From: an uncultured Gammaproteobacteria bacterium
GTDB taxonomy: Bacteria > Patescibacteriota > Microgenomatia > Levybacterales > UBA12049
Assembly (NCBI GenBank): GCA_964515545.1
Contig: CAZERI010000002.1
Location: 149,731 to 213,730 of the forward strand
DNA: 64,000 nucleotides
Direction of reading: 5' to 3'
Shown here: positions 1,921-50,091 of the stretch, piece after piece
Layout of the letters: each line of letters begins with the position of its first letter
How positions within the stretch are numbered: position 1 is the stretch's first letter
Translations under genes and position numbers: made by a program
Notes under the pieces: model-generated
Database searches by the model: none
Told to the model about the DNA's origin: nothing
Seen by the model: only the letters and a program-made list of their open reading frames with translations

Positions 1921-2295
1921 ATCAGAATTATGTATTGAACAAGGATTAAAAGCAACAGCTTTAACTAAATTATAAAAATAGTAATAATCCTAAGGATAAG
2001 GCTATAGTATTGATAAGCTGCTGAGGATCTAAGATACTGAATGTATAACTGTTGTGAACATTAAAGAACTACTCGCTTTAAAGAGATTTTCTTTTGGTCA
2101 TTTACTTCTTCTATTTTCTTTTGCTCTTACTCCAATTCTTTTATTTAGTAATAAGGTCGGTAGTGCTGAACTCAGTGCAGCATGGGCATTTATTTATCTT
2201 TCAGTGGCTATAGTTGAATCTGTATTACCTCTTCATAAGAGGAAATAATTTAGAAGTAATTATTAAATTAACTCCTAAGATGCTACAATTAGCTC

Positions 2296-3228
2296 ATGCT
2301 AAGTATAGTTGTCCCTGTCTATAACGAAGAGGAGAGCCTGCCTCATTTTTATGAGGAGCTGGTCAGAGTCCTCAAAGCACTTAACAAAGACTATGAAATA
2401 GTCTTTGTTGATGATGGCTCCAGAGATAAATCCTTCTCAATACTTCAGGAACTCGAAGCGAAAAATAAGCATATCAGAGTATTCTCATTCAGACGCAATT
2501 TAGGTAAAGCAGATGCTCTCTCTCTTGGCTTTCTTAAAGCAAAAGGAGATATAGTCATCACTCTTGATGCGGATCTCCAAGATCAGCCTTCAGAAATTCC
2601 TAACTTTTTGGCAAAACACAAGGAGGGTTATGATGTCGTCTGCGGTTGGCGTAAGAATCGTAAGGACGCTTCTAAAATGAAGATGATCTCTCGCCTCTTT
2701 AACTATACACTTAATAAGGCTTTTGATCTCATGGTCCATGACTATAACTGCGGTATGAAGCTTTATACTGCAAGTGCTGCGAAAAGTCTTCACCTCTATG
2801 GCGGTCTTCATCGATTTATCCCTATTCTAGTCTATGAACAGGGATACTCTGTAACAGAGATGGTGGTCCACCACGAACCGCGCAAGTTCGGCAAGTCTAA
2901 GTACGGATTTTCAAAAATCTTTAAAGATCTTCCTGACATGTTTACGATGTTATTCCTTGTGAAATACATGAAGCAGCCTCTGCATTTTTTTGGGGGAGTC
3001 GGAGGAGTACTCTCTGCAATAGGGATGCTAATCCTTTTTTATCTCACAATCCTTCATTTCTTGGGTGAGTCTATTGGAAGACGGCCTCTTCTGATCTTTG
3101 GAGTTTTACTAGTGGTAACAGGCTTACAGGTATTCTTTACAGGCTTCCTAGCAGAGCTTCTTATCAATCTTTCACAGCGCGGGGAAAGACATAGCTATCC
3201 TCTGAAATACGTGTCTAGTGATAACTAA
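2296..3228 (+). CDS. GT2 polyprenyl-phosphate sugar synthase (DPM1/Ppm1/GtrB/ArnC family) with two C-terminal TM helices
   Basis: VVPVYNEEESL, VFVDDGSRD and DADLQDQP (DXD) motifs. About 230-aa GT-A domain followed by two hydrophobic helices, which is the typical dolichol/undecaprenyl-phosphate glycosyltransferase architecture. Confidence 0.85.
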   Translation: MLSIVVPVYNEEESLPHFYEELVRVLKALNKDYEIVFVDDGSRDKSFSILQELEAKNKHIRVFSFRRNLGKADALSLGFLKAKGDIVITLDADLQDQPSEIPNFLAKHKEGYDVVCGWRKNRKDASKMKMISRLFNYTLNKAFDLMVHDYNCGMKLYTASAAKSLHLYGGLHRFIPILVYEQGYSVTEMVVHHEPRKFGKSKYGFSKIFKDLPDMFTMLFLVKYMKQPLHFFGGVGGVLSAIGMLILFYLTILHFLGESIGRRPLLIFGVLLVVTGLQVFFTGFLAELLINLSQRGERHSYPLKYVSSDN

Positions 3229-3252: not shown

Positions 3253-3822
3253 TTGCTCATGCATGCTAAATGTAATAAGTCTATGCGAATAGGAATAGAT
3301 ATTTCTCAATTAACATACAGCAATACAGGTGTAGCCAACTATTTAACGCATCTTGTGAAGGAACTTACAGTGGCTGATTCTTCAAATGAATATGTCCTTT
3401 TCTATTCTTCCTTACGAGGAAAAATAGATGAAAGCTTTGTCAAAGATCTTACTAAATCTCATGTGACTATTAAGAGCTTTAAATTTCCTCCAATTTTCCT
3501 TGATCTTCTATGGAATAAACTGCATATTTTACCAATTGAAGCACTTATCGGAGAGGTAGATTTATTTATCACCTCAGATTGGGTTGAACCACCTGCCAGA
3601 AGTGCGAAAAAAGCTACTATTCTTTACGACCTTATCGTCTATAAATATCCTCATGAATCAACTGCAAAAATCGTTGAGACTCAGAAAAGGAAGCTGAAAT
3701 GGGTTAAAAAAGAGACCCAGGCAGTCTTTTGTATCTCAAAAGCGACTATGAAAGATGCAATTGAAATCCTTAAAATTCCTCAAGAAAAACTTCACGTTAT
3801 TTATCCTGGTTTTACCATGTAA
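3253..3822 (+). CDS. truncated GT4 glycosyltransferase (N-terminal Rossmann domain only, ends at the V-Y-P-G hinge); possible pseudogene or split GT
   Basis: MRIGIDISQL...ANYLTHL N-terminal GT4 signature. The ORF stops right after HVIYPGF, where the C-terminal catalytic domain should begin. A full GT4 starts 2 nt downstream. Confidence 0.45.
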   Translation: MLMHAKCNKSMRIGIDISQLTYSNTGVANYLTHLVKELTVADSSNEYVLFYSSLRGKIDESFVKDLTKSHVTIKSFKFPPIFLDLLWNKLHILPIEALIGEVDLFITSDWVEPPARSAKKATILYDLIVYKYPHESTAKIVETQKRKLKWVKKETQAVFCISKATMKDAIEILKIPQEKLHVIYPGFTM

Positions 3823-3823
3823 T

Positions 3824-4954
3824 ATGATTATCGGAATTGATGCCAATGAAGCAAACGTAGAAAAAAAAGTAGGAATCAGTGAGTATGTCTACCAGTTACT
3901 GCTGCAGTTTCACGCAGCTGCATCAGATAATAAAAAGTTTGTTATTTACCTCAAAGATAAGCCCCGTGAGGATTTCCCGAAAGAGTCTCCCAATTGGGAG
4001 TACAAAGTAGTGGGTCCTCATAAAATGTGGACTCAGATGGGGCTTCCTCTTAATTTATTCCTTACCAAAGTTAAGCCAGATGTCTTTTTCTCTCCTGGCC
4101 ACTATGCACCTCGCTTCTCTCCTATCCCGACAGTTATATCTATTATGGATTTAGCTTTTTTTCATTTTCCGGAGTATTTTACCCAGAAAGATCTAGCCCA
4201 GCTTAAAAGTTGGACTAACTACTCAGTTAAGAAGGCTAAGGCTGTCATTACCATCAGCGATTCTACTAAAAATGATATAATTAAGCTGTACGGTGTCCCT
4301 GATAAAAAAATACATGTCGTTTATTTGGGGATTAAAAATGCGCTGACTCTCACACCGCACATCTATCCTATGCAGGAGTTGCAGACTAAATACGGAATAA
4401 GCAAAGACTTTATCCTTTTTGTGGGTACACTACAGCCACGAAAAAATATCCAGAGACTCATCCAGGCTTTTGCAGAGCTTCTCAAGCAAAAAAAATATCA
4501 GGATTCACCTCATCAGCTGGTCATCGTAGGTAAAAAAGGCTGGCAGTATGATGAGATCTTGGCTGCTCCAAAGAAGCTTGGTATTGAGGATAGAGTGAAG
4601 TTTCTGGATTTTGTCCCCGATGAGGAGTTAGTGATGCTGTATAAGAATGCACTTTGCTTTGCATGGCCAAGCCTGTATGAAGGGTTTGGTCTTCCAATTC
4701 TTGAAGCGATGAAGCTGGGATGTCCGGTAATTACCAGTAACGTCAGCAGTATGCCAGAAGCAGGAGGAGATGCTAGTCTCTATGTCGATCCCGAGGATAC
4801 TGAGGACATCGCAGAGAAACTTGATAAGGTACTATCTGATCCTAAGCTTCGTTCAGAAATGATCGAAAAAGGTAAAAAGCAGGTCCAGAAATTTAGCTGG
4901 GAGAAGACAGCTAAAGAGACCTTGGCTGTTTTAGAAGAGGTAGCGAGAGTTTAG
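3824..4954 (+). CDS. GT4 (group 1) glycosyltransferase
   Basis: MIIGIDANEAN N-terminus. C-terminal domain has the E-x7-E-like region (FAWPSLYEGFGLPILEAMKLGCPVITSN). The ORF-track start at 3755 is an out-of-context N-terminal extension, and ATG 3824 immediately follows the stop of the upstream ORF. Confidence 0.85.
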   Translation: MIIGIDANEANVEKKVGISEYVYQLLLQFHAAASDNKKFVIYLKDKPREDFPKESPNWEYKVVGPHKMWTQMGLPLNLFLTKVKPDVFFSPGHYAPRFSPIPTVISIMDLAFFHFPEYFTQKDLAQLKSWTNYSVKKAKAVITISDSTKNDIIKLYGVPDKKIHVVYLGIKNALTLTPHIYPMQELQTKYGISKDFILFVGTLQPRKNIQRLIQAFAELLKQKKYQDSPHQLVIVGKKGWQYDEILAAPKKLGIEDRVKFLDFVPDEELVMLYKNALCFAWPSLYEGFGLPILEAMKLGCPVITSNVSSMPEAGGDASLYVDPEDTEDIAEKLDKVLSDPKLRSEMIEKGKKQVQKFSWEKTAKETLAVLEEVARV

Positions 4955-4966
4955 TTCTTAGATGAT

Positions 4967-5017
4967 AGGTCTTAGGTCTTAGGTCTTAGGTCTTAGGTCT
5001 TAGGTCTTAGGTCTTAG
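4967..5017. repeat. perfect heptanucleotide microsatellite (AGGTCTT)x7 plus a partial unit, intergenic
   Basis: Read directly: seven uninterrupted AGGTCTT copies at 4967-5015. They lie between the GT4 stop (4954) and the acetyltransferase start (5047). Confidence 0.95.
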
Positions 5018-5046
5018 TTTATATCTTAAGAAAAATACAAACACAT

Positions 5047-5601
5047 ATGATTCGGAAAGTAATTAATCGAATAAATACAGTTGCTAATGAGTATGTGCTT
5101 TTTTGGCTTCATTTAGTGGGAAGTATTCCTTCCCATCACCTCCGCCGGTTTTTTTATCGTCTTTCAGGGATGAAGATTGGGAGAGGTTCAACGATCCACA
5201 CTGGGGCTAAGTTCTATCAGCCACTTGGTATACGAATTGGTAAAGATTCCATCATTGGTGAAGGAGTAGTACTGGATGGGCGAGGAACACTTGAGATTGG
5301 TGATCATGTAGATATTGCTTCAGAAGTGATGATTTACAACTCTGAGCATGATATCCATGATCCAAACTTCGGTCCTATCACCCAAGCTGTGAAAGTTGAA
5401 GACTATGTCTTTATCGGCCCACGGGCGATTATTTTGCCTGGGGTGGTGATTGGGAAAGGAGCAGTCGTCGGAGCCGGAGCGGTAGTTACTAAAGACGTCA
5501 AGCCATTTATGGTGGTTGGCGGAGTTCCAGCTAAAGAGATAGGAGAGCGGAGAGACCAGAATCCTTCTTATAAGTTGGGGAGGGCTGCATGGTTTCGTTA
5601 G
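5047..5601 (+). CDS. hexapeptide-repeat (left-handed beta-helix) sugar O-acetyltransferase, WbbJ/LacA/MAT-like
   Basis: Repeated [LIV]-G-x-x-x-x hexapeptides (IGKDSIIGEGVVLDG..., IGPRAIILPGVVIGKGAVVGAGAVV). Size about 184 aa. Confidence 0.85.
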   Translation: MIRKVINRINTVANEYVLFWLHLVGSIPSHHLRRFFYRLSGMKIGRGSTIHTGAKFYQPLGIRIGKDSIIGEGVVLDGRGTLEIGDHVDIASEVMIYNSEHDIHDPNFGPITQAVKVEDYVFIGPRAIILPGVVIGKGAVVGAGAVVTKDVKPFMVVGGVPAKEIGERRDQNPSYKLGRAAWFR

Positions 5602-6440
5602 TTATCCTCTCTTATAATAAACGAGAATTAACCTCAAGCTGCCTTACTAGTATTTATAAGCATATTCCTGAGAAAGAATGTGAAGTAATTGTTGTCGATA
5701 ATGCCTCAAGTGATGACAGTGTAGAGTATATTAAAAAGCATTTTCCTCAAGTAAAACTCATAGAAAATTCAAAAAACGCAGGTTTTGCAGGAGGATGTAA
5801 TCTAGGAGCAAAACGTGCTTTGGGAGAGTATGTCTTATTTCTTAACAATGATGCGGAAGTCGCCAGTGATCCGCTTCCTCAGATGATTGAGGTCTTTGGA
5901 AAACATCCTGATACGGGAATTGTGGGAGGACTTTTGGTAAATCATAATGGCAGTCTCCAGCGTTCATTTGGATCATTTTATACAGTTGTGAACGTCGCTT
6001 ACCTTCTTTTTGCAGGTGAGAGCGGAGAATTAAAAAGATTCCACAGTAATGATGTTACCCCAACTGATTGGGTGAGTGGTGGTTTTATGATGGTAAAGAG
6101 AAGTATTTTTGAGAAGGTAAAAGGATTTAATGAATCGTATTTTATGTATATTGAGGATATGGATCTTTGCTACAGAGTTAAGAAGGAGGGTTATGAAATC
6201 TATAACACACCTTTTGCCCGAGTGAGACACCTAGGCCAGGGAAGCACTAATAAGGCATTTGCGATAGTACATATTTTTGAGGGACTTCAAATTTTCTATA
6301 AACAGCAAAGAAGTGCTTTCGAATATTACGCAGTTAAGCTATTATTATTTATTAAGGCAGTCTCTGCTTTACTTATTGGTGTGGTGACGATGAATAAATA
6401 TCTTGTCACGACATATAGAGATGCGCTTAAGACATTATGA
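5589..6440 (+). CDS. GT2 family glycosyltransferase (rhamnosyl/galactofuranosyl-transferase-like, soluble)
   Basis: LVILSYNKRELT, VIVVDNASSDDS and FLNNDAEV (DXD-like) motifs of GT-A family 2. Confidence 0.85.
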   Translation: MVSLVILSYNKRELTSSCLTSIYKHIPEKECEVIVVDNASSDDSVEYIKKHFPQVKLIENSKNAGFAGGCNLGAKRALGEYVLFLNNDAEVASDPLPQMIEVFGKHPDTGIVGGLLVNHNGSLQRSFGSFYTVVNVAYLLFAGESGELKRFHSNDVTPTDWVSGGFMMVKRSIFEKVKGFNESYFMYIEDMDLCYRVKKEGYEIYNTPFARVRHLGQGSTNKAFAIVHIFEGLQIFYKQQRSAFEYYAVKLLLFIKAVSALLIGVVTMNKYLVTTYRDALKTL

Positions 6441-9400
6441 GATTGTTACGCTGGATTAAAGCTAATCCATTATTACTTATTACCCTTTTTCTTTTTGCAT
6501 TTATCCCTCTTTATCCAAAATTGCCACTTCTGGATATCAAAAATACGTGGGTATATATAAGGGTTGAAGATTTCCTTGTAGCTTTTGCCTGGTTAGTATT
6601 TTTTATTGCGTTTATTCGCAAAAAAGCGACTCTTAAAACGCCATTATCTATCCCTATCCTTATCTTTTGGATCGTCGGAGCAATTGCTACAGTTTATGGT
6701 GTACTGTTTATCTTCCCAAAGCTTGCCAATGTCTATCCCAATTTAGCTTTTCTTAATTATCTCCGCCGTATTGAATATCTTTCTGTTTTCTTCCTTGCTT
6801 ATTCATCAATAAAGAAAAAAGAGGCGATTACTCCTATTATGATTACTCTTTTTGTTACCATGCTTGCAATTTTCTTGTATGGAATAGGACAAAGGATGTT
6901 TGGATTTCCTGCCTTTCAGACGATGAATGAAGAATTTGCAAAAGGAATTCCACTTAGGCTTTCGGCGCTCTCCAGAATTCCATCTACCTTTGCGGGGCAT
7001 TATGATTTAGCTGCTTATTTAATCCTCCTTATTCCAGTTCTAGGAAGTATGATCTTTGGCTATAAAAAGTGGATTGTGAAGATCCTCTTTTTTCTTCTTA
7101 CGACCGCGAGCCTCGTCCTTCTCCTGATGACTGCCTCGCGTGTGTCATTTGCAGTGTATATGGTTTCAATTGCTCTCATGCTTATCTTCCAAAAACAGAA
7201 GAAGTTCATTATTCCTGTCTTTATCTTAAGTATTCTCCTCTTAAAATCCTTTACAGGAATTTCTCAGCGTTTTGCTGCTACATTTACTCAAGTAGATCTC
7301 GTTGTTGACTCGCGAACCGGTAAGGCTATAGGAGTTGCATCAGAATATGGAAATGGAAATATCGTTATTTCTGACGAGTTATCAAATGGGGAGAATTTAC
7401 CGACAGGCTCCCGCTATATTAATCTGGCAGGAGGAGGACAAGGACAGGACTCAAATATTACTTACAAAAGACTTGTCCCAGGGTCTGGCCAGCAGGAAAT
7501 CATAACCAAGGCAGGTAAGGTAATCGTCAAGAAAGCCTTTGCTTATGACGTCTCATTTACTACGCGTTTTCAAGGCGAATGGCCAAATGCTATCAAGGCT
7601 TTTGAGAGAAATCCACTCCTCGGGAGCGGATATTCATCCATTACGCTTGCTACAGACAACAGCTTTCTCCGCATGCTGGGTGAGACCGGACTCTTAGGCT
7701 TTTTCTCCTTTATCAGTATTTTTGTCTTTGTGGGAATTTATCTCATACGGCTGGTCCCTGAGATTGACGATAGGCGTATTAAAAGTCTTATTTGGGGCGT
7801 ACTAGCAGGAAATATAGGACTTGCGCTTAATGGGACACTTATTGATGTCTATGAAGCATCAAAGGTGGCTTTTGTTCTATGGATTTTACTTGGCGTAACA
7901 CTTGGTCTAGCACATCTTTACCAAAAGAAAAAGATTGATTATCTCTTAGATCTTCGTAAGATTTTTACCTCAACACCAGCATTTATTGTAGGGATAGTCG
8001 TTGTTGGTTTTTTGGTTTTTGCAGGATCATTCTCAAATTACTTTACCGCTGATGATTTTACCTGGCTTCGCTGGGCAGCTGATTGTAAGCAAATTATTGA
8101 GCAGACAGGTCTCCAACAGTGCGGTTCTCTTATCTCAACGATTACTCATTACTTCACTAACTCTCAAGGATTTTTCTATCGTCCTGGTACCAAAGCGTAT
8201 TTCTTGATAGCGTATCCTATTTTTGAATTATTTCCGTCTCCTTTCCATGTGGTTTCATTCATGCTCCATTTGACAGCAACAATTCTTATATTCTTCATTT
8301 CTAAAAAACTCCTCAAGAGTCAGATCTATGGCTTTTTAGTCGCAATTTTCTTCCTCTTTTTAAGTGTGCATGCAGAAGCACTTTATTGGATTTCAGTTAC
8401 TGGGCACTTAGTGACTGCAGTCTTGATACTTTTTGCATTTCTCTGCTTTATCTACTTTAGGGAGACAAAAAAGAAAATCCTCTTCGCTCTTGCATGGGTA
8501 GCAGTATTTATCTCTATGTTTTTCCATGAATATGGTACGACAGGTCCGCTCCTTCTTATAGCTTATGATTTAATTGATGATTGGAAGATGGCGGTTAAGA
8601 AACCATTTGCTAAATGGTATTATCTTTTGCTCCTCCTTCCTATCGGTTTATATTATTTTCTTCGTGTCATCTCTCAGAGTGTGTGGTTCCAGGGAGACTA
8701 TAGTTACAATATCGCGAAGCTGCCGTTTAATGTCATAGGTAATACACTTGGCTATGTGAGTGCATCCGTCGTGGGACCGGTTATCCTGCCTTTCTTTACG
8801 ACTCTGAGAACTTCGGCAGCACACAATCTCCCCCTCACTGCAGTTGCTGTATTAGTAGGAATAGCAGTTGTTGGAGGAGGAGTATGGCATGTGAGAAGAT
8901 CATTCAAGAAAGACAGTAGTAAAATGCTTTTATTATCAGGAGCCTTATTTATCATTCCGTTACTTCCATTTTTAGGGCTTGGCAATATCAGTCCTCGGTA
9001 TGCATATCTCTCTTCATTTGGAGTTGTTTTTTTCATTGGGTATATTCTTCAGCAGTTCACAAAAGAAGAGAAAAAATATAAAGTTACTTTTGCCTTAGTT
9101 GCTTTAATTAGTGTTGTTTTTGTTTCACTCCACTTTAGTCAGCTAAATAAGATAAATAAAGACTGGAATAAGGCAGGTGCTATAGTCAATAACACGCTTG
9201 TTGGTATCAATTTGGCCTATGCTCAACCAGGAAGTCTCCCTCGCAATCCTATTTTCTATTTTGTAAATATACCTATTAAATATGGCGATGCATGGGTGTT
9301 CCCGCTTGGTCCGCAGGATGCTCTATGGTTCTCATTCCAGGATGTTCCTCTTCAGACAATATTAACGAACTCTGAAAAAGGAGCAGAGGATTTAGCTGAC

Positions 9401-9535
9401 AAACATCCAAACGTAAGTGTATTCATGTATGACAAGGAGGGAAGTATCGGACAGTACACACCTCCTCTAACACCTACCCCAACTCCAGGATATAAGGTAA
9501 AGACAGTAGTTAGTCCTACTCCGTATGTTAAATAA
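6437..9535 (+). CDS. fusion protein: N-terminal O-antigen ligase/polymerase (Wzy_C) domain plus C-terminal GT-C-like polytopic domain, with a Pro/Thr-rich C-terminal tail
   Basis: Wzy_C signature NPLLGSGYSSITLATDNSFLRMLGETGLLGF in a 12+ TM N-terminal half. C-terminal half (from about aa 530) has a DDFTWLRWAAD loop and a hydrophobic core resembling the DWHSWRQAD loop of the next ORF. Ends with PPLTPTPTPGYK. Confidence 0.7.
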   Translation: MRLLRWIKANPLLLITLFLFAFIPLYPKLPLLDIKNTWVYIRVEDFLVAFAWLVFFIAFIRKKATLKTPLSIPILIFWIVGAIATVYGVLFIFPKLANVYPNLAFLNYLRRIEYLSVFFLAYSSIKKKEAITPIMITLFVTMLAIFLYGIGQRMFGFPAFQTMNEEFAKGIPLRLSALSRIPSTFAGHYDLAAYLILLIPVLGSMIFGYKKWIVKILFFLLTTASLVLLLMTASRVSFAVYMVSIALMLIFQKQKKFIIPVFILSILLLKSFTGISQRFAATFTQVDLVVDSRTGKAIGVASEYGNGNIVISDELSNGENLPTGSRYINLAGGGQGQDSNITYKRLVPGSGQQEIITKAGKVIVKKAFAYDVSFTTRFQGEWPNAIKAFERNPLLGSGYSSITLATDNSFLRMLGETGLLGFFSFISIFVFVGIYLIRLVPEIDDRRIKSLIWGVLAGNIGLALNGTLIDVYEASKVAFVLWILLGVTLGLAHLYQKKKIDYLLDLRKIFTSTPAFIVGIVVVGFLVFAGSFSNYFTADDFTWLRWAADCKQIIEQTGLQQCGSLISTITHYFTNSQGFFYRPGTKAYFLIAYPIFELFPSPFHVVSFMLHLTATILIFFISKKLLKSQIYGFLVAIFFLFLSVHAEALYWISVTGHLVTAVLILFAFLCFIYFRETKKKILFALAWVAVFISMFFHEYGTTGPLLLIAYDLIDDWKMAVKKPFAKWYYLLLLLPIGLYYFLRVISQSVWFQGDYSYNIAKLPFNVIGNTLGYVSASVVGPVILPFFTTLRTSAAHNLPLTAVAVLVGIAVVGGGVWHVRRSFKKDSSKMLLLSGALFIIPLLPFLGLGNISPRYAYLSSFGVVFFIGYILQQFTKEEKKYKVTFALVALISVVFVSLHFSQLNKINKDWNKAGAIVNNTLVGINLAYAQPGSLPRNPIFYFVNIPIKYGDAWVFPLGPQDALWFSFQDVPLQTILTNSEKGAEDLADKHPNVSVFMYDKEGSIGQYTPPLTPTPTPGYKVKTVVSPTPYVK

Positions 9536-10964
9536 ATCATTAGCGACTAAAGTACTCATAGTTATCCTAGCGGTCGGGTTCCTTGTAAGACTTTATCGAT
9601 TTGATAATCCTATCGCTGATTGGCACAGCTGGCGTCAGGCAGACACCTCGTCAGTCTCCAGAAATTTTGTTACTTCAGGATTTGATGTACTACATCCTCG
9701 CTTTGATGATTTATCAAATGTCCCTTCCGGCCTTGATAACCCGCAAGGCTATCGCTTTGTTGAATTTCCTATTTATAATATTCTCCAAGCTGGATTTTTT
9801 AAGTTTATTGGGATACTGACTTTAGAAGAGTGGGGAAGACTCATTAGTATTTTTGCTTCTCTATTCGGGAGTTTTGTGATATTCCAGCTTCTCAATAAGT
9901 ATTCGGGAGTAAAAGCAGGGTTAGCAGGAGCTTTTTTCTATACATTTTTGCCGTATAACATTTATTATTCACGTACTATTCTGCCTGATCCTGCTATGGC
10001 AGGAGCAGTAATAGGAGCAGTCTATTTTTTTAGTAAGTGGGCAGATAGCCATGGTAAGGATACTAGGAGTTTTGTACTATCTCTTCTTCTTCTCATGTTA
10101 GCTATTCTCCTTAAGCCGTATGCTCTTTTCTATGGATTGCCATTTTTGGTACTTGTCTATCAGGAATTTGGGATGAAAGTACTAAAGAATGTGAAAATAT
10201 GGATATATGTGATAGCTTCCATTATCCCTTTTATCCTTTGGCGACTTTGGATGCAGCAATTCCCCGAAGGAATCCCTGCTAATGCATGGCTTCTTAACGG
10301 CAATGGTATTAGATTTAGGCCATCATTTTTTCAATGGATTGGGTATGAGCGGATAACTAAGCTAATCTCAGGGTATGTGGGGATACTCCTCCTAGGAGTA
10401 GGAGGAATACAGCTTATCAAAGAAAAGCGAAGACTTTTTTATCTTTCATTGGTTGTAAGCGCTTTGGCATATCTTTGTGTATTCGCGACAGGGAATGTGC
10501 AGCATGATTACTATCAAATAGTAATTATGCCTGTGGTAGCAATATTATTTGGCCTTGGGGCAAAATGGTTCCTTGAGCCTAAGTCCCATAAGGCATTAGC
10601 TTTTAAGCCGATTATTCTGGGAGTCATCACCTTGGTGGCTTTCAGTCTGAGTTGGTATCAGGTGAAAGATTACTTTAATATTAATAATAGAGCCATTGTT
10701 ATAGCCGGGAATGCAGTAGACCAGAAGATCCCTGAAGATGCCAAAGTAATTGCTAATTACAATGGAGATACTTCTTTTCTGTATCAGACAAAGAGAAAAG
10801 GCTGGTCAAGCTTTGAGAAACCGCTTCCTGAGATGATCTCAATGGGTGCTGATTATTTAGTCTTAGCCAATCCTTCGACTCAAGATCTCTACTTTGCTAA
10901 AGACTATAAAATTATTGCACAGACTAAAGACTATTTGCTCTTTGATCTTCACCAGAAACCATGA
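9525..10964 (+). CDS. GT-C-fold membrane glycosyltransferase (GT39/GT83, ArnT/PMT-like)
   Basis: N-terminal TM, then a periplasmic loop DWHSWRQADTSS with an acidic motif, followed by more than 10 TM helices. Paralogous to the C-terminal half of ORF 6437..9535. Confidence 0.6.
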   Translation: MLNKSLATKVLIVILAVGFLVRLYRFDNPIADWHSWRQADTSSVSRNFVTSGFDVLHPRFDDLSNVPSGLDNPQGYRFVEFPIYNILQAGFFKFIGILTLEEWGRLISIFASLFGSFVIFQLLNKYSGVKAGLAGAFFYTFLPYNIYYSRTILPDPAMAGAVIGAVYFFSKWADSHGKDTRSFVLSLLLLMLAILLKPYALFYGLPFLVLVYQEFGMKVLKNVKIWIYVIASIIPFILWRLWMQQFPEGIPANAWLLNGNGIRFRPSFFQWIGYERITKLISGYVGILLLGVGGIQLIKEKRRLFYLSLVVSALAYLCVFATGNVQHDYYQIVIMPVVAILFGLGAKWFLEPKSHKALAFKPIILGVITLVAFSLSWYQVKDYFNINNRAIVIAGNAVDQKIPEDAKVIANYNGDTSFLYQTKRKGWSSFEKPLPEMISMGADYLVLANPSTQDLYFAKDYKIIAQTKDYLLFDLHQKP

Positions 10965-12151
10965 AAATTTTAATGATTTCATCATACCTTCCTTACCCTC
11001 TCTTTGATGGGGGGACCATCCGTCTCTTTAATTTGATAAAACAGCTCAGTACTAAGCATGAGATTACGCTTATTTGTGAAGTAAGACCGCATCAAAATAG
11101 AGACGATAGTAAGGAGGTTGAGAAAATTACAGAAAAGGTGATCACTATCCCTCGTAAAAAACAATGGAGTGCACAGAATATCCTTAAGGCGGGTTTTTCT
11201 AGTGATTCGTTTTTGATCGTCGGCCATACACTCCCTGAGATGAAGAAAGTAATTGACAATGAACTAAGGACAAAGACCTACGACCTTATCCACGTCGAGA
11301 CTTCATACGTCATGCAGAATCTACCTCCGACAACACTCCCTGTAGTTCTTGTTGAGCATAACATTGAATATCTGGTTTATACAAAATTTATGGATAAAGC
11401 GCCTTTGCCTCTCCGTCCTTTTCTAAAGATTGATATAGCAAAACTGAGAAAGCAAGAAGAGGCTTTTTGGCGGAAAGCTTCTCAGGTAGTAACTGTGTCT
11501 GATGGAGAAAAGAAGATTGTCGAAAAAACAGGAATTAAAGCAAAGACTGTCTATAATGGTGTTGATTTATCAAACTTTCCTTTTAAAGATGTGGTTAAGT
11601 CATTGGAAGGCGACAAAAAACAATTCTTATTTATAGGCAACTATAAATGGCTCCAAAATCGCGACTCTGCCAGATGGATCTTACAGGAAATCTGGCCAAA
11701 AATAAAAGAAAAAGCAGTGGGGGAAGTTGTGCTTCGTATTGTTGGGCGGGATATGCCTGAGGATATAAGAAATTGGAAAGATGAGTCAGTCATCATCGAA
11801 GAGAATTCAGGTCGTAAGACTCAAGAAATCTTTGCAGAAAGCTTTGCCCTCCTGGCACCGATCAGAATTGGAGGAGGCAGCCAGTATAAGATTTTAGAAG
11901 CCTTAGCAGTCGGGACTCCAGTTATCACGACCACTCTTGGCTTGTCAGGACTTGATGTAAAAAAGGATGCGGATCTCCTGGTCGCAGATAATGCGTCTGA
12001 TCTTTCGGAAAAGGCTCTAGCTCTTCTTAGTGATGAAAAACTCTATAAGCATCTTGCAACAAGTGGAAGGAAGCAAATTGAGGAAAAGTATGATTGGGGA
12101 AAGATCGCAATAACTCTCCAGGAAATATACCAGGAGGCTGTTAACGTATGA
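10961..12151 (+). CDS. GT4 (group 1) glycosyltransferase
   Basis: MKILMISSYLPYPLFDGGTIR N-terminal GT4 motif. C-terminal GGSQYKILEALAVGTPVITT. Start/stop overlaps its neighbours (ATGA coupling). Confidence 0.85.
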   Translation: MKILMISSYLPYPLFDGGTIRLFNLIKQLSTKHEITLICEVRPHQNRDDSKEVEKITEKVITIPRKKQWSAQNILKAGFSSDSFLIVGHTLPEMKKVIDNELRTKTYDLIHVETSYVMQNLPPTTLPVVLVEHNIEYLVYTKFMDKAPLPLRPFLKIDIAKLRKQEEAFWRKASQVVTVSDGEKKIVEKTGIKAKTVYNGVDLSNFPFKDVVKSLEGDKKQFLFIGNYKWLQNRDSARWILQEIWPKIKEKAVGEVVLRIVGRDMPEDIRNWKDESVIIEENSGRKTQEIFAESFALLAPIRIGGGSQYKILEALAVGTPVITTTLGLSGLDVKKDADLLVADNASDLSEKALALLSDEKLYKHLATSGRKQIEEKYDWGKIAITLQEIYQEAVNV

Positions 12152-13251
12152 GGATTGGCATTGATGCACGATTTTGGCATGAAACAGGTGTTGGGCGATA
12201 CATTCGTAATCTTGTTCTAGAGCTCGACAAATTAAATTCCGAACATGAATTTGTCCTTTTTGTAAAAGAACAAGATGAAAATAAGATACGCAGTGCTGTC
12301 ATGAATAAAAATTTTAAGATTGTACCAACTGCTATTCATTGGCATTCTGTTAAGGAACAGCTTTTATTTTCACGGATTTTACAAAAAGAGAGGATGGATT
12401 TGATGCATTTTACGTATTTCTCAGTGCCTATTTTATACTCAGGCCCATTTGTAGTGACAATTCATGATTTAATCATCCATCATTTTGCCACTGGTGAAGC
12501 AACAACTCTGCCTTTTCCTCTCTATAAAGTCAAAGTTGAGGCATATAAGCATGTTATTTCAACAGCAGCAAGAAAGGCGGTAAAGATTATTGCAGTATCT
12601 GAAGCAACCAAGAAAGAGGTTGTAGATCATTTAGGAGTACCTGAAAATAAAATTACCGTTACCTACGAAGGCGTAGACCTTTCTCTATCTAAGCCAAAAG
12701 ACCGAGGATCTAAGAATGATTATGGCAAGTACTTCCTCCATGTCGGCAATGTCTATCCTCATAAAAATGCTAAGCGGTTAGTAGACGCCTTTGAATTTAT
12801 TCATGAGGAGGATGTCAAACTTCTATTTATTGGTAAAAAAGATTATTTTATGACTAAATTGGAGAATTATGTTAAGAAGAAAAATATTTTAAATGTAGAA
12901 TTTTTAGGATTTGTTAAAGATGATGAGCTAGAAGAGTTATACCAAAATGCTCTTGCTACTGTTGTTCCTTCTTTGATGGAAGGATTTGGTCTGCCTGTCC
13001 TTGAGGCACTTGCAAATAAATCACTTGTAATTGCTTCAGATATTCCATCTTTGAGAGAGGTAGGAAAAGAGGCCCTCTTGTATATTGATCCTTTAAATAT
13101 TACCTCGCTTTCTGCTAAGATGCAGCACATTGTCAAGGATGATCCGAAAAATTTTGAAAGTTATAAGATAAGAGGACTCGAGATAGTAAAGCATTTTAGC
13201 TGGAAAGATATGACTGAGGCGACAATACGAATATACGAAAGCTGCCTTTAG
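12148..13251 (+). CDS. GT4 (group 1) glycosyltransferase
   Basis: MRIGIDARFWHETGVGRY and EGFGLPVLEALANKSLVIASD motifs. Confidence 0.85.
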   Translation: MRIGIDARFWHETGVGRYIRNLVLELDKLNSEHEFVLFVKEQDENKIRSAVMNKNFKIVPTAIHWHSVKEQLLFSRILQKERMDLMHFTYFSVPILYSGPFVVTIHDLIIHHFATGEATTLPFPLYKVKVEAYKHVISTAARKAVKIIAVSEATKKEVVDHLGVPENKITVTYEGVDLSLSKPKDRGSKNDYGKYFLHVGNVYPHKNAKRLVDAFEFIHEEDVKLLFIGKKDYFMTKLENYVKKKNILNVEFLGFVKDDELEELYQNALATVVPSLMEGFGLPVLEALANKSLVIASDIPSLREVGKEALLYIDPLNITSLSAKMQHIVKDDPKNFESYKIRGLEIVKHFSWKDMTEATIRIYESCL

Positions 13252-13312: not shown

Positions 13313-14413
13313 ATGAAAGTAGCGCTTGTTTATGATCGTGTAAATAAATGGGGTGGAGCAGAACGCGTCCTCATAGCTCTTCATGAGTTATTCCCAGATG
13401 CAGATTTGTATACCTCAGTCTACAGCAAAAAAAAAGCCAAGTGGGCAAAGAATTTTTCAGTTATTCCTTCTTTTTTGCAGGACTTCCCCTTTGCCAAAGA
13501 TGCTCATGAGTTCTATCCTCTGTTAATGCCGATCTCTTTTGAGTCATTTCATTTTGATGACTATGATGTAGTGATTTCAGTTACCAGCGAAGCTGGAAAG
13601 GGGATAATCACCAAGCCCCATACTCTTCATATCTGTTATTGTCTGACTCCGACCCGTTACTTGTGGAGTGGTTTTGATGAGTACTTTCCGACCCCTTTAG
13701 CACGGATTCTCTCCTATCCGGCTATTTCTTATCTAAGAATGTGGGATAAAGTAGCGAGTTCCCGACCTGACAGATTTATCGCCATATCAAAAGAAGTAAG
13801 CTCACGAATAAAAACCTTTTACCATCGAGATACTCAGATTATCCACCCGCCTGTTGCTCTTATTGAGGCTGATTTTTCTAAAAATACAAGAAAGAAAAAA
13901 GGAGAGTATTACTTAGTGGTATCAAGGCTCGTGCATTATAAGAGAATTGATCTAGCAATTTTGGCTTGCAATAAGCTTAACCTTCCGCTTAAAATCGTAG
14001 GAACAGGCAGCGAGATAGAGAAATTAAAAAGAATTTCAGGGCCTACTATTGAATTTCTCGGATTTGTTCCTGATGAAGAGTTAGTCCCCCTCTATAAAGA
14101 TGCAAAAGCTTTGCTTTTTCCAGGGAGTGAGGATTTTGGGATAGTCATGGCTGAAGCATTAGGCTTTGGGACACCTGTTATCGCTTATAGGAATGGGGGA
14201 GCTATGGATATCGTTGAAAACGGTAAGTCAGGAATCCTTTTCCCGCATCAGACTGTCGCCTCGTTAGTAAAGGCTATAAAAATGGCTGAGACCAAAAAAT
14301 TTAGAACATTAGATCTCAAAAAACGAGCTCAATATTTTTCTTCAACACATTTTAAGCAAAAGATAAAAGCCTATATTGACGAGTCTTTGCAAAAGAAAGA
14401 AATATGTCTATAA
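13313..14413 (+). CDS. GT4 (group 1) glycosyltransferase
   Basis: MKVALVYDRVNKWGGAERV N-terminus and EDFGIVMAEALGFGTPVIAYRNGG C-terminal motif. Confidence 0.85.
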   Translation: MKVALVYDRVNKWGGAERVLIALHELFPDADLYTSVYSKKKAKWAKNFSVIPSFLQDFPFAKDAHEFYPLLMPISFESFHFDDYDVVISVTSEAGKGIITKPHTLHICYCLTPTRYLWSGFDEYFPTPLARILSYPAISYLRMWDKVASSRPDRFIAISKEVSSRIKTFYHRDTQIIHPPVALIEADFSKNTRKKKGEYYLVVSRLVHYKRIDLAILACNKLNLPLKIVGTGSEIEKLKRISGPTIEFLGFVPDEELVPLYKDAKALLFPGSEDFGIVMAEALGFGTPVIAYRNGGAMDIVENGKSGILFPHQTVASLVKAIKMAETKKFRTLDLKKRAQYFSSTHFKQKIKAYIDESLQKKEICL

Positions 14414-14425
14414 TAAGGTGAATCT

Positions 14426-15508
14426 ATGAAAATAGTTATTTTTGCAGGCGGAGTTGGTACACGGCTTTGGCCTCTATCGCGCAAGAATACTCCTAAGCAG
14501 TTTGGACAGATCATAGGAGATAGGTCTACCCTTCAGCAGACAATAGATCGTTTATCAACAGAATTTCCTCCTGATGATATTTTTATAGCCACGGGTAAAC
14601 AGTATAAACAAAATGTAGAATCCCAGCTCTCAATGGTTCCTAGGGAAAACTTTATTTTTGAACCGATGATGCGGGATGTAGGACCAGCTATCGGCCTAAA
14701 TGCTTTTTTACTGGAGAAATTGGCTCCCGATGAACCTATTGCGATTTTGTGGAGTGATCATCTTGTTAAGAATGTCTCGATGTTTCGCCATGTGCTGCGG
14801 ATAGCTGAGAAAATGATTCTGGAAGACAATGCTAACTTTGTTTTTATTGCTCAAGAGCCACGATTTGCCAACCAAAATCTCGGCTGGATAGAGTTGGGAG
14901 AAAAAGTAAAGAATGATAATGGAGCTGAAGTTTACCATTTTGCTAAGTTGCGTTATCGTCCTGCACTAGAAGAAGCTGAGCAGTTTTTCCAGCAGGACAA
15001 CTTTGTCTGGAATTTAGGCTACTTCGTTACCACACCCCGCTTCCTGGTGTCCTTATTTAAGGAAAATTCCCCTGAGATGTATGAAAAGCTACGAGAGATC
15101 CAGTCAGCATATCAGACAGCTGAGTATGAACAAAAGCTTGAAGAAATTTATCCAACTCTCGAGAAGATAAGCTTTGATGATGCAGTGCTGGTAAAAATGT
15201 CACCTCAGGATGTCTATGTGATATCTACTGATCTGGGCTGGAGTGATATAGGAGCATGGGATGCTCTGAAAGAAGCATTAGCTAATACTTCAGATGAAAA
15301 TATTACCAAGGGTAAAGTTCTGGTAGAGGATACACGTGATTCGTTGGTCTTTAACTATACCGATCAATTAAGTGTAGGGATAGACCTTTCGGAGATGCTT
15401 ATTATTAATACAGAAGATGTGCTTCTCGTCTGTCCTAAGAGCTCAGTACCAAAAATTAAAAAGCTGGTTGAGAACCTTAAAGACACTCCTCATGAGCATC
15501 TAGCCTAG
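14426..15508 (+). CDS. manC: mannose-1-phosphate guanylyltransferase (GDP-mannose pyrophosphorylase), short form without cupin/PMI domain
   Basis: MKIVIFAGGVGTRLWPLSRKNTPKQF matches the ManC/CpsB nucleotidyltransferase N-terminus. About 360 aa. Confidence 0.8.
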   Translation: MKIVIFAGGVGTRLWPLSRKNTPKQFGQIIGDRSTLQQTIDRLSTEFPPDDIFIATGKQYKQNVESQLSMVPRENFIFEPMMRDVGPAIGLNAFLLEKLAPDEPIAILWSDHLVKNVSMFRHVLRIAEKMILEDNANFVFIAQEPRFANQNLGWIELGEKVKNDNGAEVYHFAKLRYRPALEEAEQFFQQDNFVWNLGYFVTTPRFLVSLFKENSPEMYEKLREIQSAYQTAEYEQKLEEIYPTLEKISFDDAVLVKMSPQDVYVISTDLGWSDIGAWDALKEALANTSDENITKGKVLVEDTRDSLVFNYTDQLSVGIDLSEMLIINTEDVLLVCPKSSVPKIKKLVENLKDTPHEHLA

Positions 15509-16221: not shown

Positions 16222-18171
16222 GTGAGTATGCCCGGATTTGAAAAGATCGATCTAGATCTTAAAAATGATATAATAACAGAGACTCCAGGTATGGCACGAC
16301 AAAATCGAAAGCAGCGAAAGAAGTCTCCTAAGAATATGAAATTAATCGGCGGAATTGTACTCGTCGTAGTTCTATTTCTTATTTTTGGACTTATTCTCCC
16401 TGCTTACTCTCTCATTAAATCAGCTAAAGCCACTTATACTCAGACCAAGGCTCTTTCAGCTGCAGTAAAGCAGCAGAATATAGATCTGGCATCAACAGAA
16501 CTGGTTAAAACCCAAGAAAAACTAGCTGACACTAAAAATAAATTACACAGACTTGGCTATCTGCACTTTATTCCTCTAGCAAATTTCTACTATAACGATG
16601 CTGATCATATGATGAATGCAGGGGATGAAGGGCTAAAGACTGCCAAGATAGTCATAGAGTCGCTCAAGCCTTATGCAGATGTATTAGGCCTTAAAGGCCA
16701 AGGTACTTTTGTCGGAGGATCAGGTGAGGATCGAATTAAGACTGCTGTCCTGACGCTTGGTAAAATTACTCCTCAGATAGATACGATCTCAGGTAGTCTC
16801 TTAAAGGTTAAGTCGGAAATTGATAAGGTAAATCCCCGTCACTATCCCAAACTTCTTTTCGGGAGTAAGATACAGGATCAGCTTATACAAGTCAGGACAC
16901 TAACTGATGAAAGCGTGGAATTCGTGGATCAGGCAAAGCCGTTGATTAAGGTTCTTCCGACTCTTTTAGGTGAAGAAGAGGAGAAGAAATATCTCGTCTT
17001 ATTCCAAAATGATAAAGAGCTTCGCCCAACCGGAGGCTTTATCACAGCATATGCCATATTCAGAATTGATAAGGGAGTAATCAACTTAGAGCGTTCTGAT
17101 GATATCTATCCTCTGGATGACTCTATCTCTAATAAGCCTAAGGCTCCTGCACCTATTTTGAAGTATCTCCCTAAAGTCTATAATCTCAATCTTCGTGATA
17201 GTAATTTATCCCCTGATTTTATTGAGTCAATGGACCAATTTAATGAGCTGTATCAGAGAGCAGGTCAGAGGGTAGATGTCGATGGTATTATCGCCATGGA
17301 TACCAATGTCTTGACGACAACTATCAAGATTCTTGATGATCAGGTGACAGTAGATGGCCAGACATTTACTACTAAGAATGATCCCCGATGTGACTGTCCA
17401 CAAGTGATTTATGCTCTGGAGGATAATATTTCTCGTCCGGTTAACTACGTCAAAACTGATCGTAAGGGACTTCTTGGTGACATGCTCCAGACACTTATGA
17501 AGAAAGCTCTTTCTTCATCTCCTAAAGTCTACTGGGGTCCCCTTTTCCAGTCTATGCTCGCCCTTACTCATCAAAAGCATATCCTTTTTGACTTATATAA
17601 CGATGATGCTCAGTCAGGAATCGTAGCTCTCCAGGCAGCGGGAAAGATCGAAGCGTTTGATGGAGACTATCTTCATATTAATGAAGCCAACTTCAGCGGA
17701 GCTAAGACTAATCTCTTTATCAACCAGACAGTAGAGAGCTCATATGATGTTAAGAGTGACGGGAGTGTCACTAAGACAGTCACTATTAACTACAAGAATA
17801 CCCATGCTCCTTCAGACTGTAACTTAGAGAGCGGAGGGCTCTGTCTCAATGCTGAGTATCGTGACTGGATCCGGCTGTATGTTCCTAAAGGAAGTAAGAT
17901 GGTAGATAGTAAAGGTTCTCAGGTAAAAATGTCTACCTATGATGAATTAGGGAAGACTGTGTTTGATGGCTTCCTCACAGTAAGACCATTAGGTGCAACG
18001 ACTTTTACTATTACCTATACGCTTCCATTTAAGGTAAAAGGCGGAGAACTTCCGCTTCTTATCCAGAAGCAGCCAGGGACAGATATGCCTGCCTACACTG
18101 TCAAGGTAAATGGTCATACAGTCCAAAAGTTTAACCTCCTTACAGACAAGAAAGTTACATTAAAAGTATAA
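16222..18171 (+). CDS. membrane-anchored DUF4012-family protein (unknown function, associated with cell-envelope polysaccharide loci)
   Basis: N-terminal TM (LIGGIVLVVVLFLIFGLIL). Internal motif FQNDKELRPTGGFI matches the NxAExRxTGG hallmark of DUF4012. Confidence 0.55.
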   Translation: MSMPGFEKIDLDLKNDIITETPGMARQNRKQRKKSPKNMKLIGGIVLVVVLFLIFGLILPAYSLIKSAKATYTQTKALSAAVKQQNIDLASTELVKTQEKLADTKNKLHRLGYLHFIPLANFYYNDADHMMNAGDEGLKTAKIVIESLKPYADVLGLKGQGTFVGGSGEDRIKTAVLTLGKITPQIDTISGSLLKVKSEIDKVNPRHYPKLLFGSKIQDQLIQVRTLTDESVEFVDQAKPLIKVLPTLLGEEEEKKYLVLFQNDKELRPTGGFITAYAIFRIDKGVINLERSDDIYPLDDSISNKPKAPAPILKYLPKVYNLNLRDSNLSPDFIESMDQFNELYQRAGQRVDVDGIIAMDTNVLTTTIKILDDQVTVDGQTFTTKNDPRCDCPQVIYALEDNISRPVNYVKTDRKGLLGDMLQTLMKKALSSSPKVYWGPLFQSMLALTHQKHILFDLYNDDAQSGIVALQAAGKIEAFDGDYLHINEANFSGAKTNLFINQTVESSYDVKSDGSVTKTVTINYKNTHAPSDCNLESGGLCLNAEYRDWIRLYVPKGSKMVDSKGSQVKMSTYDELGKTVFDGFLTVRPLGATTFTITYTLPFKVKGGELPLLIQKQPGTDMPAYTVKVNGHTVQKFNLLTDKKVTLKV

Positions 18172-20253: not shown

Positions 20254-20304
20254 TAGAAGAGTCTGACTCATTGACATAAAGTAGAGAGTTGGTACAATAA
20301 ATTT

Positions 20305-27611: not shown

Positions 27612-27650
27612 AAATAGAATCTCACCATTGAGAGGTATATAATACACACA

Positions 27651-48541: not shown

Positions 48542-48681
48542 ATTTCTACTCTTTCAGGGTCGGGTGACTCGCAGTGGCGAGAATTCCCAATCGGTAGTTA
48601 CACTCTACGAGTTTTCCTAATTAGGAGACAGGAGTCTGTTAGACACAGACAGCGACGGTATAGTCCGGATAGAAGAAAGAT

Positions 48682-49602: not shown

Positions 49603-50091
49603 CTGAATTACTTGACAGAGAAGCATGAAAAATTCCAATGTGCATGTCTTGGGATCTCTCTTAAGATACCACTGACAAAAGTGACACTTGTGGAAGACTT
49701 TGGGATGGCCATTTTAGCCTTATTAATGCTGGTTCTGTGAAAAGATTTGTAAGAGTTTTTTTAGCCTCAAAGCTAATGTTTCCCGAGTAATTCCTGTGAT
49801 ACAGTTTTATATACTTTTCTCTCTTGACAGAGAGGCTGGTAGAGCCATATAGTCTAGGCAGTCCAAGTACTCAATTACCAATTGAGTGTACGGGGCAATA
49901 AACTTTCGTCGATCGAGAGGAGTTTAGAGGACAAATATGTGATCCCATGTCTGTCCTTTTTTTGTGATCTACGCACAATTTAACAGCGTCGATATAATGT
50001 GTCAAGTAGCAATTTACTATACATTTAACTCTACGCAGTTATGAGCCTTCGTTCATTGAACAATTAGCTGATTTCCGCTACAATTAGCCTT

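Follow-up and report, generated by a model that had tools for sequence, protein, structure and literature searches.

In Haemophilus influenzae, the genes hmw1A and hmw2A carry a heptanucleotide repeat, (ATCTTTC)n, and the RNA of this repeat base-pairs with a G-rich partner; RNase III cleaves the long hairpin that results (PMC12721329, PMC8262952). In hmw1A the repeat lies in the 5' untranslated region (5'UTR) and is transcribed, with expression falling in inverse proportion to n (PMC12721329). A different arrangement is found in nadA of Neisseria meningitidis, where a (TAAA)n repeat occupies a distal position in a mapped promoter and is flanked by sites for NadR and IHF (PMC2791445). Frameshift phase variation is known for glycosyltransferases of lipooligosaccharide and lipopolysaccharide (LOS/LPS) synthesis, examples being the tetranucleotides of lic and lgtC in H. 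influenzae and the homopolymers of Neisseria and Campylobacter (PMC2651432, PMC8437040). Families of intergenic heptamers have also been described, these including the cyanobacterial STRR family, GGGGAYT in Nostoc, GGGAATC in Xanthomonas (PMC4692102), and TAACTGA in the Beggiatoaceae (PMC4679880). Here we describe a heptamer array, (AGGTCTT)7, that separates two genes of a glycan-biosynthesis operon within a 64-kb stretch of DNA from an uncultured patescibacterium (contig CAZERI010000002.1; the whole 64-kb stretch is referred to as the window). The array is almost certainly a naturally hypervariable slippage repeat, and we weigh below whether its length could influence the genes that follow it.

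A hypervariable heptamer array in a glycan operon

By direct reading, the array consists of seven perfect 7-nucleotide (nt) units of AGGTCTT at 4967–5015, uninterrupted and without a mismatch, with AG following at 5016–5017, for a total of 51 nt. It starts 13 nt past the stop codon of a glycosyltransferase gene (GT4) and ends 29 nt before the ATG of an acetyltransferase (AT) gene. Analysis of the window with Tandem Repeats Finder (TRF) placed the repeat at 4951–5017 with a period of 7, 9.6 copies, 90% matches, and a score of 106; the second-best tandem repeat in the 64 kb scored 66, and the AGGTCTT array is the only one of its kind within the window. When as many as 2 mismatches are allowed, the 14-mer AGGTCTTAGGTCTT matches the window 7 times, compared to 0.57 expected. 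None of 100 dinucleotide shuffles of the window reached 7 matches, which rules out a chance origin. An earlier reading made from the letters alone (the sequence-only reading) had pointed to a perfect (AGGTCTT)7 in a glycan-biosynthesis cluster, directly upstream of AT, GT2, and Wzy_C genes, and both the array and its setting are confirmed. The single two-unit near-match of AGGTCTT found elsewhere in the window lies inside a gene and is at chance level. Neither TRF nor the 14-mer probe found the unit dispersed over many intergenic sites of the 64-kb window, and none of the 11-mers of the 29-nt spacer on the 3' side of the array recurs elsewhere in the window. Analysis with Rfam revealed no known RNA family at the array locus.

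Stop codons are present in all six frames of the array, which is therefore non-coding and could not act by frameshift. The stops also rule out a coding repeat or a small open reading frame (ORF) at this site. A frameshift phase-variable glycosyltransferase gene was likewise rejected, the array being located between the stop at 4954 and the start at 5047. When the repeat is read in the phase TCTTAGG, the tract spans 4949–5018 and its units are, in order, GTTTAGT (4/7 matches), TCTTAGA (6/7), TGATAGG (5/7), six perfect units, and TCTTAGT (6/7; 5012–5018). The TAG stop of the GT4 gene (4952–4954) sits inside the first decayed unit, GTTTAGT. This register suggests that the array probably expanded from the stop-codon region of GT4, with the decayed unit that contains the TAG serving as the seed.

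Alleles of the locus were collected by an exact-protein look-up of AT, which yielded ten other public assemblies (L001–L010). Three copies of the unit are present in L001, L003, L004, and L008, which derive from four independent samples, and six copies are present in L007, compared to seven in the window. The flanks of L007 are identical to those of the window over 2.5 kb, save for one mismatch beside an N run, indicating that L007 represents the same strain with one unit different. The 3-copy contigs represent one sister strain, 98.4–98.7% identical to the window, with 14 mismatches in the 1.6 kb to the left of the array and 6 in the 0.7 kb to its right; the array is perfect in both strains despite their divergence of 1.5%. 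These data indicate that gains and losses of whole 7-nt units occur in the array at a much higher rate than substitutions build up in its flanks. The sequence-only reading had proposed a repeat prone to slipped-strand mispairing and had called for a check of length polymorphism in population data, and the occurrence of 3, 6, and 7 copies among natural strains bears the proposal out.

A potential concern with such comparisons is assembly artefact. This was ruled out, in that independent assemblies share the flanks and contain 3 or 6 copies; moreover, the 23-nt (3-copy) and 44-nt (6-copy) arrays cannot result from k-mer collapse, because k-mers spanning both flanks must exist in the reads. The other five assemblies (L002, L005, L006, L009, and L010) are represented by k=31 contigs that start with exactly 30 nt of the repeat. 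A k=31 graph branches within any array that exceeds 30 nt, and so these five contigs represent either arrays of 5 or more copies or mixed alleles; the breaks are compatible with heterogeneity, and are also explained by an array of more than 30 nt. An exact look-up of the GT4 protein yielded only one left-side contig, which ends inside the array. A scan of JGI (Joint Genome Institute) metagenomes for (AGGTCTT)3AG revealed no further alleles of the locus among the matches listed (at least 120 contigs, all unrelated).

Apart from the repeat, the sole indel between the window and the sister strain is 9 nt, TAAGGTCGG, at 2152–2160. This indel precedes the first GT2 gene by 136 nt and is in frame in a 64-aa ORF (2054–2248). 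The TAAGGTC at this indel is one base off the repeat unit in its phase TTAGGTC, which is probably a coincidence.

Related lineages: a derived spacer and recurrent heptamers

In four related lineages there is no comparable spacer at the GT4–AT junction. The GT4 stop and the AT start are 4 nt apart in the P0001 lineage (AT 91% identical) and only 1 nt apart in both the P0002 lineage (AT 89%), where AAGGAG immediately precedes the ATG, and the P0017 lineage (AT 74%); in the P0007 lineage (AT 79%) the two genes overlap. The spacer of the window is therefore a derived insertion. We also examined 80 species-level relatives (L028–L107), taken from the GTDB genome collection with one genome per species and amounting to 623 kb in all. 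The gene upstream of AT normally abuts or overlaps the AT start in these relatives, and a detectable array is present at the GT4–AT junction in one of the 80 (L044), this being a decayed (AAAGTAT)x8. Homologues of AT are named maltose O-acetyltransferase or acyltransferase and come from Patescibacteria, Levybacteria, Roizmanbacteria, and Woesebacteria, with the best species-representative genome having an AT protein identity of only 70–71%, from which the organism is taken to be an as yet unsampled patescibacterium of the Microgenomates type. In every related contig, the GT4 gene upstream of the array is likewise called with 376 aa. A stand-alone GT4 N-domain gene (GT4-N; protein of 177–189 aa) directly precedes the full GT4 gene in every lineage examined, indicating that it is a real gene and not a pseudogene fragment. 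Many of the third-party annotation (TPA) records of metagenome-assembled genomes (MAGs) that contain such Patescibacteria-type loci (L028–L107) are titled 'uncultured Gammaproteobacteria bacterium', an evident mislabel. Positions 1–11 of two other contigs, L012 and L013, are an Illumina adapter remnant, TCTTCCGATCT.

Two lineages have repeats of their own at this and neighbouring junctions. In the P0004 lineage (AT 82%), the GT4–AT junction is 82–220 nt in length and contains two other arrays, TATAAAGT and ACTTGACGA. By contig, (TATAAAGT)n has approximately 19, 16, 9, or 1–2 copies and (ACTTGACGA)n has 5 or 3; for the long arrays (75–155 nt, the longest exceeding the read length) exact copy numbers are uncertain, the short allele of L025 being safe. 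The P0004 contigs with differing array lengths are 0–2 substitutions apart over 4–5 kb. A third array, (TATAAAG)x17, is located one junction upstream in this lineage. In the P0078 lineage (AT 69%), a decayed heptamer tract of 38 nt occupies the GT4–AT junction. Past the AT stop comes a perfect (TAGGGCT) array with 4.3 or more copies, at which all nine k=31 contigs end. TAGGGCT is one base off the window unit, and decayed copies of it are also found between GT4-N and GT4. The operon junctions of this locus have thus repeatedly gained variable tandem arrays with unrelated units. Across the orthologous loci, the array is absent from the P0001, P0002, P0017, and P0007 lineages, and different arrays are present in L044, P0004, and P0078.

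The relatives also differ among themselves at or near arrays. In two lineages, a gene for a bAvd/23S-rRNA-IVP four-helix-bundle protein is found between GT4-N and GT4 (L022 2240–2611, L023 610–981, L024 1485–1856, and L250 100–483), and it is preceded by heptamer arrays, (TATAAAG)x17 in L022 and (TCAAGTA)x7.9 in L250. The bAvd gene is present in L250 and absent from L249, the remainder being 99.3% identical, and it thus represents an insertion polymorphism associated with repeats. L249 and L251 are 99.9% identical over 2.1 kb but wholly different at an array site in GT4-N (approximately 1890–1975 in L249), one having a perfect (AATTTTC) array where the tract of the other is decayed and 14-mer-like; this site is a hypervariable coding loop. 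Similarly, L025 and L022 are 100% identical over 4.6 kb to the right of the GT4–AT junction, as against 89% in the left flank (the 3' end of GT4). All of this would be in keeping with arrays that serve as recombination hot spots, or as portable homology for swaps of glycan modules, with length variation arising as a side effect, as would the arrays of one family that flank the GT4 or bAvd+GT4 segment in P0004 and P0078. At the window array itself, however, divergence within the lineage is even on both sides, and the 64 kb contain no second AGGTCTT array that could act as a partner, making recombination quite improbable as the main explanation.

The identity of the units bears upon another possibility, that the repeats are iterons, binding sites for a lineage-specific regulator of the downstream module, with the number of sites setting occupancy. 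Related units, TAGGTCT in the window and TAGGGCT in P0078, do occur at neighbouring junctions of the orthologous locus, and a unit family is reused at two junctions within one lineage. The units of the other lineages (TATAAAGT, ACTTGACGA, and AAAGTAT) are unrelated to these, however, and a 7-bp period would set successive sites on different faces of the helix. No candidate regulator gene is evident beside the array, and we consider this function very improbable.

The 80 relatives were also surveyed for perfect repeats with units of 4–12 nt and at least 4 copies. All 12 such repeats have 7-nt units, as do 19 of the 21 arrays identified by TRF (3.5 or more copies, identity of 90% or higher). Heptamer arrays lie inside ORFs that stay open in 24 of the 26 cases inspected, roughly in proportion to coding density. 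These arrays recur at a small number of homologous loop positions, namely after 'SSLR[KR]' in GT4-N, after 'SEY.FELL..F' and after 'YPG' in GT4, and after 'DNAS.DGS' in GT2, with a single case in PMT_2; some of the arrays are near the 5' ends of GT4 and GT2 genes. The intragenic units vary by species (AATTTTC, AATTTCA, AAATATC, ATCTCAA, and others), and (ATCTCAA)x5.6 is common to L065 and L087 at the same GT2 site with different flanks. P0180, which represents a non-glycan context, had no arrays. The view of the sequence-only reading that perfect non-triplet repeats are rare in bacterial intergenic DNA thus needs qualifying: heptamers dominate the simple sequence repeats (SSRs) of this clade's glycan loci, and they are the over-represented class of long SSRs in bacteria, an excess that has been ascribed to polymerase slippage (PMC4692102, citing Mrazek 2007).

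Because 7 is not a multiple of 3, the intragenic arrays have the classic design of frameshift switches. This raises the broader idea that Microgenomates-type Patescibacteria use heptamer repeats as a clade-wide contingency system for surface glycans, with in-frame arrays in GT4, GT4-N, GT2, and PMT_2 serving as frameshift switches and stop-rich junction arrays, such as that of the window, as expression rheostats. We regard this as somewhat unlikely. All 24 intragenic arrays examined in the relatives are in the ON frame and none is in an OFF frame, and a look-up for ON/OFF variants found the AT of L065 in one contig only and the AT of L059 not on record. If true, such a system would diversify the surfaces of episymbionts against hosts or phages, and the Candidate Phyla Radiation (CPR) would have its first described contingency-locus system.

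Arrays of AGGTCTT with at least 3 copies (3–14) were also found in at least 120 unrelated JGI metagenome contigs (L108–L227). Among the matches listed, the GC content is 0.29–0.72, mostly 0.55–0.62, and the origin is mostly soil or peat, with a GC content of approximately 0.58; variant units AGGTCTC and AGGTGTC are often nearby, and a 3' flank of AGGAAAA(T/C)C often abuts a start codon. An inverted array lies within 150 nt in 27 of 120 of the matches listed and would form long heptamer-repeat hairpins, and the gene starts near the arrays are on the opposite strand in 46 cases and on the same strand in 16. This architecture is unlike that of the window, indicating that the unit is not diagnostic of organism or function. 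No paper containing AGGTCTT in tandem was found in the literature searched.

The survey and the metagenome matches are what would be expected if the window array were a neutral by-product, a strong mutational bias of Microgenomates-type genomes to 7-nt slippage having generated an array that was seeded at the GT4 stop, expanded at the one site tolerant of a stop-rich unit, has no selected role, and leaves the downstream genes adequately expressed. The prevalence of 7-nt units among the relatives, the placement of arrays in ORFs at about coding density, the general excess of heptamers ascribed to slippage, and the occurrence of the unit in unrelated contigs all favour this possibility, as does the failure to detect a regulatory signal within the array or its surroundings. 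It is harder to reconcile with the recurrence of arrays at operon junctions in at least four lineages, with a unit family reused at more than one junction per lineage, or with an array that is still perfect in two diverged strains. In addition, an untranslated insert of 64–92 nt is unlikely to be without effect upon expression in a coupled operon that is poor in Shine-Dalgarno (SD) sites. We consider neutrality a serious possibility, short of an even chance but almost as probable as the reading that we prefer below.

Expression signals and a possible effect of copy number

The genes of the cluster, from the first GT2 gene through the nucleotidyltransferase gene, are all on the + strand (Table 1). 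From AT to position 13251 each start overlaps the preceding stop by 4–13 nt, and as judged from this organization the chain 5589–13251 would depend on expression begun at or before the AT gene. In at least 14 of the approximately 33 operon-first genes of the window, the start is preceded at 5–7 nt by a TAnnnT box, often TACAAT or TATAAT; some of these genes also have a TTGACA-like -35 at 16–17 nt. SD motifs are rare in the window, and internal genes overlap stop to start. The genome thus appears to rely on leaderless mRNAs combined with stop/start overlap; leaderless mRNAs receive a passing mention in connection with Patescibacteria in PMC12641178. The AT gene has neither an SD motif nor an overlap, but only the sequence TACAAA (5036–5041), located 5 nt upstream of the ATG, which comes close to the usual TACAAT box but is without the critical final T.

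Table 1. Coordinates of the array, of the operon around it, and of comparison features (window positions unless a contig is named).
Feature	Position	Strand	Evidence
TACAAT -10 box, 6 nt before ATG of GT2 (2296–3228); leaderless promoter at operon start	2284–2289	+	
GT2	2296–3228	+	
Stand-alone GT4 N-domain gene (GT4-N)	3253–3822	+	
Full GT4, 376 aa from ATG 3824; stop in first degenerate unit	3824–4954	+	
Decayed leading units GTTTAGT/TCTTAGA/TGATAGG	4949–4966	+	TRF, match to TCTTAGG
Perfect array (AGGTCTT)x7+AG	4967–5017	+	Direct reading, TRF, shuffles
A-rich 29-nt spacer from array to AT ATG; no SD; holds TACAAA	5018–5046	+	
Hexapeptide-repeat (LbH) acetyltransferase AT, 184 aa; first gene past array	5047–5601	+	PF00132, E=4e-16
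GT2	5589–6440	+	
Wzy_C protein, 1032 aa	6437–9535	+	
PMT_2 protein	9525–10964	+	
GT4	10961–12151	+	
GT4	12148–13251	+	
GT4	13313–14413	+	
Nucleotidyltransferase	14426–15508	+	
TAnnnT boxes, examples	2284–2289, 18163–18168, 20293–20298, 27638–27643, 50079–50084		
Heptamer arrays in relatives, examples	L039 3002–3034; L059 2882–2921; L063 2803–2841; L065 2932–2965 and 4709–4747; L087 4709–4747; L050 2119–2149 and 8288–8320; L085 2460–2489		

The sequence-only reading had assigned the array to a promoter region and had suggested that slippage changes promoter spacing. In this explanation the repeat would lie between or within core promoter elements, and gain or loss of one unit would turn the AT sub-operon ON or OFF. 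A consensus scan of 4700–5300 identified no sigma-70-like promoter and no -35/-10 pair. TACAAA is the sole -10-like box; it is found 18 nt downstream of the array end, and its -35 position coincides with the invariant 3' edge of the array, so that the -35/-10 spacing is equal for 3, 6, and 7 copies. Indeed, the 54 nt before the AT ATG are identical in the 3-, 6-, and 7-copy alleles. The periodicity of the array, together with its location upstream of every possible -10/-35 pair, means that the gain or loss of units cannot alter the -35/-10 spacing. Promoter switches based on spacer length tolerate steps of 1–2 nt, which a 7-nt step exceeds. The position upstream of a glycan-cluster gene and the length polymorphism would fit the pattern of hif, porA, and opc, but we give hardly any credence to a spacing switch at this locus, and the assignment to a promoter region is not upheld.

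The same scan revealed no terminator between GT4 and AT, and read-through transcription of the array is therefore expected. With 3 units, 64 nt separate the GT4 stop from the AT start, and with 7 units the gap widens to 92 nt. Each added unit is predicted to contribute approximately -3.4 kcal/mol to the self-pairing of the repeat RNA, which is weak and G-U-rich; no complementary partner region for the repeat RNA was predicted.

Our preferred reading, which we advance tentatively, is that a slippage repeat derived from the GT4 stop uncouples the downstream module and gradually tunes it. Taken as a whole and including the regulatory effect, we give this statement slightly less than an even chance. 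The array would have grown from the GT4 stop region and now makes up most of a 92-nt non-coding spacer in an otherwise tightly packed operon. Such an insert would break the translational coupling of GT4 and AT, because first genes here seem to be leaderless, internal genes are linked by stop/start overlap, and SD sites are very few. AT and the five genes chained to it could then be expressed by either of two routes. Ribosomes might re-initiate, inefficiently, after crossing the untranslated repeat RNA with its weak self-pairing, or transcription might begin at a weak leaderless promoter, TACAAA-N5-ATG, that closely follows the array. Copy number would grade the output of AT-GT2-Wzy_C-PMT_2-GT4-GT4, acting as a rheostat like the hmw heptamer repeat of H. 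influenzae, through re-initiation distance and the length of untranslated RNA or through the array serving as the upstream region of a weak promoter. The resulting phenotype would be a surface glycan whose acetylation and extension vary between cells or strains. The model takes the hypermutability of the array and its derived, uncoupling position as its fixed points, and the regulatory steps are what we infer from them.

Several observations weigh against a regulatory role of this kind. Only three alleles are resolved (3, 6, and 7 copies), with the 3-copy allele confined to a separate strain, and the copy numbers of the long P0004 arrays may be distorted by short-read assembly. In addition to the lack of a promoter or terminator in 4700–5300, the minimum free energy (MFE) of the RNA fold has a z of -0.63 compared to shuffles, and the AT start codon is predicted to remain equally accessible over the whole range of 0–15 copies. 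The AGGTCTT unit is unlike -10 or -35 elements. Finally, heptamer arrays are common in glycan loci, and since 24 of the 26 examined are in coding regions, the intergenic site may simply be where a stop-containing unit survives.

No tRNAs were found in the window. Rfam analysis identified an FMN riboswitch (RF00050, 69.1 bits) at 48546–48684, directly upstream of a 306-aa gene (48682–49602).

Significance and comparison with described systems

Phase-variable and rheostat-type repeats acting on surface glycans are a hallmark of host-adapted pathogens. The Patescibacteria/CPR are ultra-small and are thought to live attached to other cells, and to our knowledge their surface biology is almost unknown. 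In the literature searched we found no description of SSR phase variation in Patescibacteria/CPR; a 9-mer coding repeat has been described in a Gracilibacterium (PMC6851277). The array is a hypervariable non-coding SSR beside surface-glycan genes, classical in mechanism and located in a host clade for which no such loci have been described so far, and the locus thereby offers, within a glycan operon of the CPR, a concrete site whose hypervariability is validated by population data. If array length controls expression, public metagenomes and metatranscriptomes could reveal the surface-glycan states of uncultured CPR bacteria. If it does not, the locus is still useful as a strain marker, a variable number tandem repeat (VNTR), and is a clean example of the little-understood bias of bacteria toward heptamer slippage. 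The heptamer arrays in glycosyltransferase genes of the clade make the broader contingency hypothesis testable.

The intergenic STRR, GGGGAYT, GGGAATC, and TAACTGA families resemble the arrays described here in being tandem heptamers (2–26 copies) that vary in length between close relatives and have a largely unknown function. They differ in that each has one unit at approximately 100–200 intergenic sites per genome, whereas there is a single window array in 64 kb and the units here differ between sites and lineages; in addition, AGGTCTT is not G-quadruplex-forming. The frameshift loci of LOS/LPS synthesis share with this locus a surface-glycan pathway and a unit that is not a multiple of 3, and the relatives carry heptamers in GT4 and GT2 genes. 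Unlike these loci, the window array is intergenic with stops in six frames, and the 24 intragenic arrays of the relatives are all ON. As in nadA, the repeat is upstream of any core promoter, so that copy number alters the upstream distance and phasing rather than the -35/-10 spacing; the window unit is 7 nt rather than 4 nt, however, and the scan of 4700–5300 identified neither promoter nor operator at the array.

The hmw genes differ from the window locus in several respects. The window array has 3–7 units rather than at least 11, is intercistronic within an operon rather than in the leader of a monocistronic gene, and has no predicted repeat-RNA partner or significant structure; it belongs, moreover, to an uncultured patescibacterium. 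The likenesses are that a perfect 7-nt array lies in non-coding DNA directly upstream of a gene for a surface structure and that its copy number varies in natural populations. As with hmw, the array is probably transcribed, and a graded rather than a binary effect would be expected.

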